Part shown: positions 29,131-31,056 of the stretch, piece after piece
Numbering within the stretch: the stretch's first letter is position 1
Layout: each line of letters opens with the position of its first letter
From: Deltaproteobacteria bacterium UBA2409
GTDB lineage: Bacteria; Bdellovibrionota_C; UBA2361; DDRT01
Assembly (NCBI GenBank): GCA_002343185.1
Contig: DDRT01000020.1
Location: 196,776 to 260,775, forward strand
Length of the DNA: 64,000 bases
Direction: 5' to 3'
Notes under the pieces: generated by a model
What the model was told of the DNA's origin: nothing
Seen by the model: only the letters and a program-made list of their open reading frames with translations
Databases searched by the model: none
Translations under genes and position numbers: made by a program

Positions 29131-31056
29131 TTAGTTTTCCTCAACCTGTAGGAGTTTTAATACAAGACTCGGGTTTTGATTTGCTTGGGCAAGAACTGCG
29201 CTGGCAGAATCTTGCAGAATTGATTTTCTGACTAGCTCTGCTGATTCTGAAGCTATATCAACATCTTCTATTCTACTTCTTGCAGCCTCGTATTCTAGTG
29301 TCTTTACTGACATATGCTTTAAGGCAGTGCTGAGTCTTGCTTCAAATGCTCCAACCTCTCCCCGCTGTTGAAGGAGATTATCTAAGGCTTTATCAAGGTA
29401 TCCTATAGCCTGCTTTGCATCAGCAATTGTAGCTAATGAGAAGGGGAGAAGGGGATGAATTCCATCCCGAGTATCGGCCAGTAGTACTTCAAGGGTTCCT
29501 GAGCTTGCAAGATCTGCAGTTCCTGATAGAGCGAGATCCGGCACTCCATCTCCATTTAAATCTTCTAATTCAATGTCATTTGAAGATTGCGACAACGGGC
29601 CTGAGAATGTTGTGGATGCACCAAGAGTTCCATTCCCATTTCCAAGTCTAATAGAGACAACTCCCAATGCTCCTGTAGCTCCTGTTGCTAATACATCCAA
29701 ATTTCCATCTCCATTAATATCAGAAATAGCGATCGAGCTAACACTAATTCCGAATCCACCAGTCATCATAAGGTACGTAGTAGCAGTTCCAAATGATCCA
29801 TTTGCATTACCAAGTAAGACAGAAACGTATCCATCGGTTCCACCTCTTGCTCCAAAAACAGCGTCAAGAACACCATCGTTATTTAGATCTGCTAATTCAA
29901 CCTCGCCAACAGCTGTAGTTAGACCGGATCCAAAAGATTGTCTAAATTGAAATGTGCCATCCCCATTACCTAAGCTAACGTTTAGAACTGCAGGGTTGCC
30001 TCCTCCTGATCCGATACCACCTGATAGAATATCTAGATTTCCATCACCATTAACATCAGAAAGTAAGATCTCTTGGATGTTAATGTTGTTTATCGCTATC
30101 GATGTATAAGCAGCAAATGTTCCATCTCCATTTCCATGCCTTATACTTATAGTGCCATTACCAGAGACTGAAACAAGATCGATCTTTCCATCTCCATTAA
30201 TATCCCCACCTGCTAGTGACTGAACCCCTGTCCCTGCCATTGAGTGGGACACTGTAGTTCCAAATGTGCCGTTGCCATTTCCAAGGGAGATGTAAATATA
30301 GCTACCAATCCCATTCCCTCCACCACCAACAATGTCCATATTACCATCGTTATTAATATCTAAAAGTCGAATGCTCGTCCCACTAGCGCCGATTGTTGTA
30401 GCAGCTCCAAATGTTCCATCTCCATTTCCTAAAGATATTGTCATAGCGTTAGCTGATCCACCAACTGAATCAAGAATCCCATCACCATTTAGATCTGCAA
30501 ATTCGATTGAAGTTAGATCGCTTAAAGTAAGTTCTTCCATGTAACTTCCACTTTGAGAAAATTCTCCAGTTCCAAGTGAGCCTCCTAGAGATGATAAGAT
30601 CGAGCTATATCCAGTTTGAAGTGAAAGCCCCTGAAGTGACCCATCAAATAGATTTACTCCATTAAATTTTGTAGCCCTTGAAATTCTAAAATATTCTTCT
30701 CTCAGTGCCTGTGCTTCTGAATCAAGAGCTTCTCTTTGGGTGTTGCTATATGCTCCATTAGAAGCTTGGGATGCAAGTTCTTGTAGTCTTGTAAGTATTC
30801 CACTTAAGTTCTCAAGTGCAGAATCAGCAATATTTAAAAGACTTACCCCATCGTTTACGTTTCTAATAGCCTGGGAGTAAACCCTTGTATCTGCTTTTAA
30901 AGAGGTTGCAACTGCAAGGCCTGCTGCATCATCACTTGGTTTAGTAATTCTAAGGCCGGATGAGAGTCTTTCAAAGGTTGAGCCTAGTGAGGAATTAGTA
31001 AGGCTAAGCTGCCTTTCTATTTTAAGAGCACTAATATTTTTTCCTAAAGATGTCAT
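29131..31056 (-). CDS. Flagellin with a seven-repeat FG-GAP module replacing the hypervariable domain
   Basis: N-terminal D0/D1 (LSSGLRITKPSDDAAGLAVATSL...NVNDGVSLLNIADSAL). C-terminal D1/D0 (GAFEARLSTALKHMS...SAVLAQANQNPSLVLKLL). Centre carries GNGDGTFG...D(L/I/V)NGDG..D repeats x7. Confidence 0.8.
   Translation of the reverse strand: MTSLGKNISALKIERQLSLTNSSLGSTFERLSSGLRITKPSDDAAGLAVATSLKADTRVYSQAIRNVNDGVSLLNIADSALENLSGILTRLQELASQASNGAYSNTQREALDSEAQALREEYFRISRATKFNGVNLFDGSLQGLSLQTGYSSILSSLGGSLGTGEFSQSGSYMEELTLSDLTSIEFADLNGDGILDSVGGSANAMTISLGNGDGTFGAATTIGASGTSIRLLDINNDGNMDIVGGGGNGIGSYIYISLGNGNGTFGTTVSHSMAGTGVQSLAGGDINGDGKIDLVSVSGNGTISIRHGNGDGTFAAYTSIAINNINIQEILLSDVNGDGNLDILSGGIGSGGGNPAVLNVSLGNGDGTFQFRQSFGSGLTTAVGEVELADLNNDGVLDAVFGARGGTDGYVSVLLGNANGSFGTATTYLMMTGGFGISVSSIAISDINGDGNLDVLATGATGALGVVSIRLGNGNGTLGASTTFSGPLSQSSNDIELEDLNGDGVPDLALSGTADLASSGTLEVLLADTRDGIHPLLPFSLATIADAKQAIGYLDKALDNLLQQRGEVGAFEARLSTALKHMSVKTLEYEAARSRIEDVDIASESAELVRKSILQDSASAVLAQANQNPSLVLKLLQVEEN

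Follow-up and report, generated by a model that had tools for sequence, protein, structure and literature searches.

A flagellin with a predicted seven-bladed FG-GAP beta-propeller in place of its D2/D3 surface region

Results and discussion

The stretch of DNA analysed here (64,000 nucleotides (nt) of contig DDRT01000020.1 from Deltaproteobacteria bacterium UBA2409, hereafter the window) encodes a 641-amino-acid (aa) protein, which our profile and fold searches identify as a flagellin whose D2/D3 surface region is replaced by a predicted seven-bladed beta-propeller of the FG-GAP type. We consider it fairly probable that this protein forms filaments and that the propeller, with a calcium-blade loop in every blade, serves mainly as a diversifying surface scaffold. 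The replacement of D2/D3 by a propeller had been proposed in an initial annotation of this DNA, and both the confident all-beta domain of the AlphaFold2 model and the seven-bladed, FG-GAP-type folds retrieved by Foldseek agree with it. The open reading frame (ORF) opens at an ATG according to the ORF list and is laid out as follows (window coordinates, strand, feature, and in brackets the basis of the assignment):

29131..31056, minus strand: complete FG-GAP flagellin coding sequence, 641 aa, stop codon at 29131-29133 (ORF list, Pfam, translation check)
30628..31056, minus strand: N-terminal D0 and D1 helices, aa 1-143, with the flagellin signature RLSSGLRITKPSDDAAGLAVA (PF00669, AlphaFold2, Foldseek)
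30592..30627, minus strand: D1 beta-hairpin, aa 144-155, where the chain leaves the filament core (AlphaFold2 strands 144-147 and 152-155)
29467..30591, minus strand: predicted seven-bladed FG-GAP/calcium-blade beta-propeller, aa 156-530, at the D2/D3 position (PF13517, AlphaFold2, Foldseek, composition)
29428..29466, minus strand: conserved return linker DGIHPLLPFSLAT, aa 531-543, from the propeller to D1 (alignment A1)
29134..29427, minus strand: C-terminal D1 and D0 helices, aa 544-641 (PF00700, AlphaFold2)

The protein contains no Cys, no Trp and four His residues, and its propeller is strongly acidic (39 acidic against 7 basic residues, net charge about -32). In the return linker, residues G532, F539 and L541 are conserved in alignment A1, which comprises 109 relatives.

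The flagellin core

The termini, which the initial annotation had read as the D0/D1 helices of a flagellin, match Flagellin_N (PF00669, aa 6-140, 117.4 bits against a gathering cut-off of 26.6, E 6.6e-34) and Flagellin_C (PF00700, aa 552-636, 64.1 bits against a cut-off of 23, E 1.5e-17) in Pfam, and the SDDAAG (DDAAG) signature of flagellins is found in the protein. In NCBIfam the best flagellin models reach E-values of 1.7e-53 to 1e-42, compared with 1.1e-27 for FlgL (TIGR02550; 97 bits, under its cut-off of 127). Identity with FlgL, the hook-filament junction protein, was rejected on this ground, the flagellin profiles being better by 26 orders of magnitude.

The AlphaFold2 model of the full protein, run on the 109-sequence alignment, has a predicted local distance difference test (pLDDT) score of 89.1 and a predicted template modelling score (pTM) of 0.84. 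Its N-terminal D0/D1 part consists of helices 6-32, 40-99 and 105-128, followed by the hairpin 144-155, and its C-terminal D1/D0 part of helices 544-598 and 602-640. Foldseek searches of the PDB matched the helical part and the central part separately. The former was assigned with probability 1.0 to flagellins of solved filaments, namely those of G. thiophilus (9au6), E. coli (7sn4), Salmonella (9gnz and 1ucu) and P. aeruginosa (8sug), and the filaments of H. pylori and V. cholerae were likewise matched by D0/D1. Two contrary outcomes named in the initial annotation, a disordered centre and termini foreign to flagellin, were looked for with AlphaFold2 and Pfam, respectively, and neither occurred.

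The propeller and its calcium-blade loops

For the central region both suggested FG-GAP profiles scored above their gathering thresholds: FG-GAP_3 (PF13517) matched seven stretches (173 bits, E 1.7e-51) and FG-GAP (PF01839) gave 58.9 bits (E 4e-16). In the AlphaFold2 model the centre is all-beta, with about 30 strands between aa 159 and 530 that fall into seven sets of four, each set bracketing one calcium loop, and the pLDDT is mostly above 90 over aa 156-530. The best PDB matches of the central domain are the fungal, integrin-like lectins AAL2 (Agrocybe aegerita lectin 2; 4tqj, 4tqm) and PVL (Psathyrella velutina lectin; 2bwr, 4up4), with Foldseek E-values of 1e-10 to 1e-11, 23-26% identity and a TM-score of about 0.52; PVL is also retrieved by HMMER from the sequence alone (E 5.7e-13). 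Further Foldseek matches include integrin alpha-V, BBS7, ITFG2 and the TcB propeller, and the alignments with the seven-bladed propellers of PVL, AAL2, integrin alpha-V and ITFG2 span 352-478 columns. Aa 156-530 is thus predicted to be a closed seven-bladed propeller.

The seven FG-GAP repeats claimed earlier were recovered independently as loops: a regular expression for DxNxDGxxD found exactly seven, starting at aa 188, 233, 285, 334, 390, 446 and 499, and the four peptides that the initial annotation had quoted as examples are present at aa 187, 232, 284 and 333. The loops are listed below; each was found by the regular expression, its coordinates agree with the translation, and it is conserved in alignment A1.

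30469..30495, minus strand: calcium-blade loop 1, DLNGDGILD, aa 188-196
30334..30360, minus strand: calcium-blade loop 2, DINNDGNMD, aa 233-241
30178..30204, minus strand: calcium-blade loop 3, DINGDGKID, aa 285-293
30031..30057, minus strand: calcium-blade loop 4, DVNGDGNLD, aa 334-342
29863..29889, minus strand: calcium-blade loop 5, DLNNDGVLD, aa 390-398
29695..29721, minus strand: calcium-blade loop 6, DINGDGNLD, aa 446-454
29536..29562, minus strand: calcium-blade loop 7, DLNGDGVPD, aa 499-507

At the D, N, D, G and D positions of these loops, the 109 relatives show either no variation or at least 90% conservation. The seven-loop pattern lies far beyond chance: in 10,000 shuffles of the central 375 aa, even a single DxNxDGxxD loop was present in only 26. 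The accompanying motif G-x-G-x-G-[ST]-[FL] occurs in five copies according to the regular expression, and two more related motifs were recognised by eye (GNANGSF at aa 416 and the N-terminal GTGEF at aa 162-166). The definition of a calcium blade is Dx[DN]xDG and, two positions further on, an acidic side chain (Rigden et al. 2011, PMC3123361), and in integrin-type blades the calcium loop sits between strands A and B (PMC8023676). All seven blades fit this sequence definition, and the propeller is probably calcium-binding.

Selection and conservation

Against an 89%-identical ortholog (locus L088), dN/dS is lowest in the N-terminal part (0.024), somewhat higher in the C-terminal part (0.038) and highest in the propeller (0.061). 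These values are approximate at the dS of 1.1-1.9 found here; their direction is clear, and the gene is under strong purifying selection. As protein, the propeller is 85% identical and the core 95-97%, which amounts to a roughly fourfold faster evolution of the propeller. The same ranking is seen in the 109-sequence alignment, where the two halves of D0/D1 reach a mean column identity of 0.69 and 0.63 and the propeller 0.51. Conservation within the propeller is restricted to the scaffold, i.e. the calcium loops, the GxGxGxF motif and the core hydrophobic residues, and the stretches between these motifs are hypervariable.

Phylogenetic distribution and variants with fewer blades

A survey of related flagellins, which had been suggested as a check, found that the insert is no isolated case: among the best 120 clusters at 90% identity, at least 118 carry the full architecture (40-50% identity, 569-673 aa). 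The exceptions are a non-flagellar FG-GAP protein with 14 repeats (P0086) and a longer flagellin (P0116; 887 aa, 68% coverage) with an extra repeat region of about 230 aa ahead of the propeller. Since the cluster at rank 120 still scores 426 bits, the family extends beyond those listed. Named sources of the relatives are metagenome-assembled genomes (MAGs) labelled Deltaproteobacteria, SAR324, Bdellovibrionota and Bdellovibrionales. From 591 confirmed flagellin loci in GTDB species representatives, at least five (L005-L009, E 2e-141 to 3e-52) match strongly enough to include the propeller, among the matches listed. The sequence of the window itself also occurs in assembly GCA_002344365.1 (contig DDTP01000021.1), in JGI 3300006417 and in bioreactor-sludge runs. 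The cysteinyl-tRNA synthetase of the host shares at most 58-65% identity with its counterparts in Dadabacteria, Oligoflexia, Bdellovibrionota and "Deltaproteobacteria" MAGs, a level of divergence that points to an uncultured deep lineage. The family of FG-GAP flagellins is found mainly in uncultured Bdellovibrio-like bacteria. A profile search of 1.84 billion representatives was dominated by giant multi-propeller FG-GAP proteins, of which the seven-blade unit is, as judged by these matches, a standard extracellular module.

Paralogy of FG-GAP flagellins is common. The MAG Co_bin.265 encodes three of them in tandem (L005, 76-7531) together with a plain 286-aa flagellin (L012, 5451-6311), and locus L092 (5107-11959) has two FG-GAP flagellins 3 kb apart. 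Between the paralogs at L005 lies a 527-aa ORF with no Pfam match. The relative P0005 (50% identical; L090, 5055-8867) is encoded 1.1 kb from fliS, beside a 932-aa methyltransferase/glycosyltransferase protein with a faint Maf_flag10_N match, and the flagellin at L006 is followed by GT1 and PMT-like glycosyltransferases; some members of the family may be glycosylated.

Searches with D0/D1 alone retrieved plain 286-aa flagellins from Bdellovibrionota MAGs (45-51% identity) as well as short FG-GAP flagellins that have identical junction motifs and fewer blades. Two calcium blades are present in P0394, P0395 and P0396 (373-389 aa) and three in P0393 and P0397 (409-417 aa); the junction motif of the return linker is common to the examined family members with two, three and seven blades, including P0393-P0396. 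In a neighbour-joining tree of D0/D1 cores, which carries no bootstrap values, the FG-GAP flagellins cluster apart from the plain ones, and the three canonical two-blade forms fall at three separate places inside the seven-blade cluster, one of them as sister to the window protein. This placement suggests repeated loss of blades. In P0024 the blades are nearly identical to one another, as would be expected if they had been amplified or homogenised recently. A ring cannot be closed by two or three blades of a single subunit; an AlphaFold2 model of a two-blade member, built from a 3-sequence alignment only, has a pLDDT of 47, too low for use.

Proposed role of the propeller

We think that the propeller is mainly a rigid, fast-diversifying surface scaffold and not a receptor for one conserved ligand, since conservation of scaffold positions only, combined with hypervariable surfaces, favours a structural, diversifying layer. 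Such a scaffold could serve mechanical stiffening or sheathing of the filament, antigenic or phage-receptor variation, or binding specific to particular lineages.

The subunit would be exported unfolded via the flagellar type III channel and would fold at the filament tip. With its acidic surplus and seven putative calcium sites, the propeller would have little stability at the Ca2+ levels of the cytoplasm and would close firmly only in the Ca2+ outside the cell; by analogy to RTX repeats in type I secretion, this instability at low calcium could keep the 375-aa insert competent for export. Propellers normally bring their N- and C-termini together, and adjacent termini would also suit the insertion into a D1 loop proposed here. 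A propeller is about 45-50 Å across and about 30 Å thick, and one of them would be displayed per subunit, so as to give the filament a Ca2+-stabilised outer layer.

Several observations weigh against a filament coated in this way. Every NCBIfam flagellin match lies under its full-length cut-off, and no flagellin equivalog cut-off is reached, which is expected because 375 foreign residues interrupt the core. Since at least one related MAG has a plain 286-aa flagellin as well, the propeller flagellin could be a minor or segment-specific subunit. The 64-kb window, in which there is no other Flagellin_N-type ORF, covers only part of the genome, and further flagellins may be encoded outside it. Inspection by eye found no recognisable sigma-28 or sigma-54 promoter upstream of the gene, the fit to either consensus being poor. 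As to geometry, a flagellar filament has 11 protofilaments, a rise of 4.7 Å per subunit and a D1 outer radius of about 60 Å; a rough estimate from such textbook dimensions, rather than from model coordinates, places the propeller at a radius of at least about 70 Å in a filament roughly 20-23 nm wide.

The initial annotation had favoured adhesion, ligand binding or contact with prey or host. In this vein the filament could be a multivalent lectin or adhesin, whose propeller binds a defined carbohydrate (e.g. GlcNAc, as PVL and AAL2 do) or a protein ligand, and thousands of copies would turn the flagellum into an adhesion fibre for contact with prey, host or biofilm matrix. We regard this as unlikely, even though the best PDB matches in structure and in sequence are precisely the GlcNAc-binding AAL2 and PVL, and FG-GAP/VCBS propellers are typical of extracellular interaction proteins (PMC8023676). 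The lineage is also related to Bdellovibrionota and Oligoflexia, and prey contact would be useful if its members were predatory like cultured Bdellovibrio, which is an assumption. However, the inter-blade segments of PVL that bear Trp and His (e.g. 'IGAGGWTISAHPR') face gaps in the flagellin, which has no Trp at all, and across the 109 relatives only scaffold positions are conserved, with no family-wide pocket visible. We therefore rejected a PVL-type sugar pocket, as the Trp/His loop before each calcium loop is gapped and the protein has no Trp and four His; the pocket residues were judged from the HMMER alignment rather than by superposition. The limitation of family-wide conservation to scaffold motifs and the deletion of the PVL loops weaken the case for a specific adhesive or ligand-binding role. 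A conserved lectin function is not supported by these alignments, and binding specific to a lineage could occur.

A further proposal, which we hold to be rather improbable, makes calcium a folding switch: the insert would be unfolded in the low-calcium cytoplasm, pass the 2-nm channel and snap into a propeller outside, yielding a multivalent Ca2+-dependent fibre that Bdellovibrio-like bacteria could use for contact with prey or surfaces, and the members with two or three blades would complete propellers between neighbouring subunits. If true, such inter-subunit propellers would be a new way of cross-bracing a flagellum.

Instead of building the bulk of the filament, the protein could be a minor or positional flagellin (in a proximal or distal segment or a cap-adjacent ring), or a secreted flagellin-like protein that uses D0/D1 only for docking and type III export, with Campylobacter FlaC or the junction protein FlgL as parallels. 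The occurrence of several FG-GAP paralogs in related genomes (three plus the plain 286-aa flagellin in Co_bin.265, two at L092) would fit such a role, as would the gene organisation, since the gene is monocistronic and those of other relatives are scattered, often away from flagellar clusters; a second type III-like module with SctJ-like and SctV-like proteins is moreover present at 58-62 kb of the window. Against this stand the margin of 26 orders of magnitude by which flagellin profiles surpass FlgL, the top fold matches, which are filament flagellins, and the already mentioned lack of a second Flagellin_N-type ORF in the window. In addition, D0/D1 is of full length and more conserved than the insert (0.69 and 0.63 against 0.51), with dN/dS of 0.02-0.04, which is the pattern expected of polymerisation interfaces. 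On balance we find a minor or secreted protein improbable.

A catalytic propeller, e.g. a Ca2+-dependent polysaccharide lyase resembling the calcium-blade propeller of RGL11 in an enzymatic flagellum analogous to flagellinolysin, is very improbable: a rhamnogalacturonan lyase of B. subtilis does belong to the calcium-blade propellers (PMC3123361) and enzymatic flagellins are established (PMC5595980), but the top 50 listed fold matches contain no lyase or hydrolase, Pfam yields only repeat families for the insert, and the protein has neither HExxH nor conserved non-scaffold residues for an active site.

Comparison with known systems

Fields et al. 2024 (PMC11532411) grouped AlphaFold models of UniProt flagellins into 682 outer-domain clusters and mention "WD40-repeats in cluster #55", with non-flagellar homologs, for which they proposed co-option from non-flagellar proteins. 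In this cluster, as in the protein described here, D0/D1 is conserved and the D2/D3 position is taken by a foreign domain that is compact and rich in beta structure. It differs in that the brief mention speaks of WD40 and is silent on calcium sites, the repeat family, the taxa and the gene context, whereas we find FG-GAP/VCBS repeats with seven calcium blades; on the basis of that mention, cluster #55 may or may not be the FG-GAP flagellin family.

In flagellinolysin (Eckhard et al. 2017, PMC5595980), too, the hypervariable region houses a functional domain, which is shown thousands of times over, and the family was, like the present one, found by mining of domain architectures. The domain there is an HExxH gluzincin peptidase, unlike the repeat propeller of the FG-GAP flagellin, in which no HExxH motif is present and Pfam detects no peptidase family. 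The same study reported 61 domain types in flagellin hypervariable regions, with FG-GAP outside the ten most frequent. In the giant flagellins of Oceanospirillales (Thomson et al. 2018, PMC6248924) a large central insert likewise replaces D2/D3, and thick filaments were shown experimentally. There the insert is a flagellin-specific DE/DX region with no similarity outside flagellins, whereas the FG-GAP module is shared with giant non-flagellar proteins.

Among free-standing propellers, PVL (2bwr) and AAL2 (4tqj) resemble the flagellin insert in being seven-bladed and integrin-like and in having a DxxGDGxxD-type calcium loop followed by an N-G-N-G-T-F motif; they differ in being lectins, and the flagellin lacks their inter-blade loops with Trp and His. 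Of the three calcium-blade motifs of PVL, one is unoccupied in the deposited crystal structure (Rigden et al., PMC3123361); the flagellin has seven motifs. The propeller of integrin alpha chains (PF01839) shares the seven blades, the FG-GAP repeats and the Dx[DN]xDG loops between strands A and B, with calcium loops in three blades of integrin alpha-V (PMC3123361). Integrins pair with a beta subunit and stand on a membrane stalk, whereas the present propeller forms part of a flagellin. In type IV pili, PilY1 is a single protein associated with the tip and not the repeating subunit. It has in common with the FG-GAP flagellin a Ca-binding seven-bladed propeller on a bacterial filament for motility or adhesion, and calcium binding controls the behaviour of the filament (PMC3123361); it differs by having one calcium-blade motif and an unrelated secretion route.

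Full-text literature searches found no description of a fusion between flagellin and a propeller. As a general kind, flagellins with co-opted outer domains are known, and an outer domain of the propeller type has been glimpsed before. What appears to be undescribed in the searched literature is the FG-GAP calcium-blade identity, the full set of seven calcium sites, the extent of the family and the lineage that carries it, the paralogy among its members, and the series with two, three and seven blades.

Genomic context

Other features of the locus are as follows:

31956..37959, plus strand: flgB, flgC, fliE, fliF, fliH, fliI, fliJ and a weakly FlbB/MgtE_N-like gene, divergent from the flagellin gene (Pfam, NCBIfam)
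31057..31238, minus strand: 5' intergenic region; a GAGGA ribosome-binding site precedes the ATG by 12 nt (sequence, alignment A2)
29573..29950, plus strand: antisense 125-aa ORF within the propeller-coding region, judged spurious (ORF list)

The flagellar gene string from flgB to fliJ begins 0.9 kb from the flagellin gene and ties the FG-GAP flagellin to the flagellar apparatus. The last gene of the string (37252-37959, plus strand) has a weak FlbB match (E 4e-6, far under the cut-off) and a weak MgtE_N match; FlbB is the collar protein in periplasmic flagella of the spirochaete type. The flagellin gene is separated from flgB by a 156-aa ORF (31239-31709, plus strand) with a hydrophobic N-terminal segment, for which neither Pfam nor NCBIfam gave a match and which is kept at the same position in the 89% ortholog locus L088. 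In the flagellin intergenic region, the blocks TTGC..GCAT..TGC and TTAGcCCCAGaT are common to the three orthologous regions of alignment A2 (window, L088, L089), and no sigma-70-like site was found there.

Just 3' of the flagellin stop codon there are two direct copies of a 115-nt element (28861-28975 and 29010-29124), 91% identical and spaced 149 nt from start to start. The element is flanked by the terminal inverted repeats TGTGTTCTTCGTGGTT / AACCACAGAGAACACA, and its end motif GAACCACAGAGAACACAAAGA recurs as inverted pairs at 3131-3202. It looks like a small dispersed repeat of the miniature inverted-repeat transposable element (MITE) or repetitive extragenic palindrome (REP) kind; no Rfam family matches it.

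A second FG-GAP protein in the window (343 aa, 22508-23539, plus strand) has a signal-peptide-like N-terminus. It starts 2 nt past the rodA stop codon and ends the string mreB-mreC-mreD-pbp2-rodA. It is apparently co-transcribed with these cell-elongation genes, which is unusual. The initial annotation had seen in this neighbour a sign of domain shuffling with the filament. This idea did not stand up, as the two share 23-28% identity, the neighbour lacks the GNGDGTF motif and directly follows rodA in the elongation string; the real relatives of the propeller are hundreds of other flagellins and the seven-blade module of giant FG-GAP proteins.

In the region 58103-62799 (plus strand) there are genes for a sigma factor weakly similar to FliA/WhiG, an SctJ-like lipoprotein, a FliN/SctQ-like protein, an SctV/FlhA protein and a TPR protein. 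The SctV/FlhA protein (594 aa) is matched in two stretches, slightly better by the hrcV model than by FlhA, and no match in this region reaches its curated cut-off. These genes could encode either another type III module, of non-flagellar type, or an export gate of the flagellum that has diverged. Elsewhere, a thiamine pyrophosphate (TPP) riboswitch (51442-51535, plus strand, 62.9 bits) lies directly 5' of the gene for a 663-aa TonB-dependent-receptor Plug-domain protein (51539-53530, plus strand); a tRNA gene (51059-51132, minus strand) precedes them by about 300 nt and a tyrosine recombinase/integrase gene (53663-54628, minus strand) stands just after the receptor.

Repetitiveness of the coding DNA

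Spurious antisense ORFs had been attributed to very repetitive codons in the central region. This is correct as far as the ORF at 29573-29950 is concerned: it exists, in a stop-poor antisense frame (14 stops, 163 codons open). DNA repeats as its cause did not hold: Tandem Repeats Finder detected no tandem array of the repeat unit in the coding DNA, and the longest exact DNA repeat, which codes for the GNGDGTF motif, is 22 nt. Identity among the seven units averages 41% for the protein and 62% for the DNA, and tandem repeats at the DNA level were rejected. We infer that the ORF is spurious and a by-product of the Gly/Asp/Asn-rich coding composition rather than of DNA repeats; the sense frame opposite to it is under purifying selection.

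Conclusions

The outer domains of flagellins are increasingly seen as a site at which functions such as proteolysis, adhesion or stiffening are added to the filament. To these the FG-GAP family would add an integrin-like propeller with a calcium motif in every blade, in an uncultured lineage related to Bdellovibrio. It would provide a natural test of how a large, topologically closed domain passes the flagellar type III channel and of tip folding driven by extracellular Ca2+. A Ca-switchable propeller in about 20,000 copies per filament could be a useful display scaffold. Finally, the occurrence of forms with two, three and seven blades in one flagellin lineage would make this family a compact system for the study of propeller evolution by gain and loss of blades.

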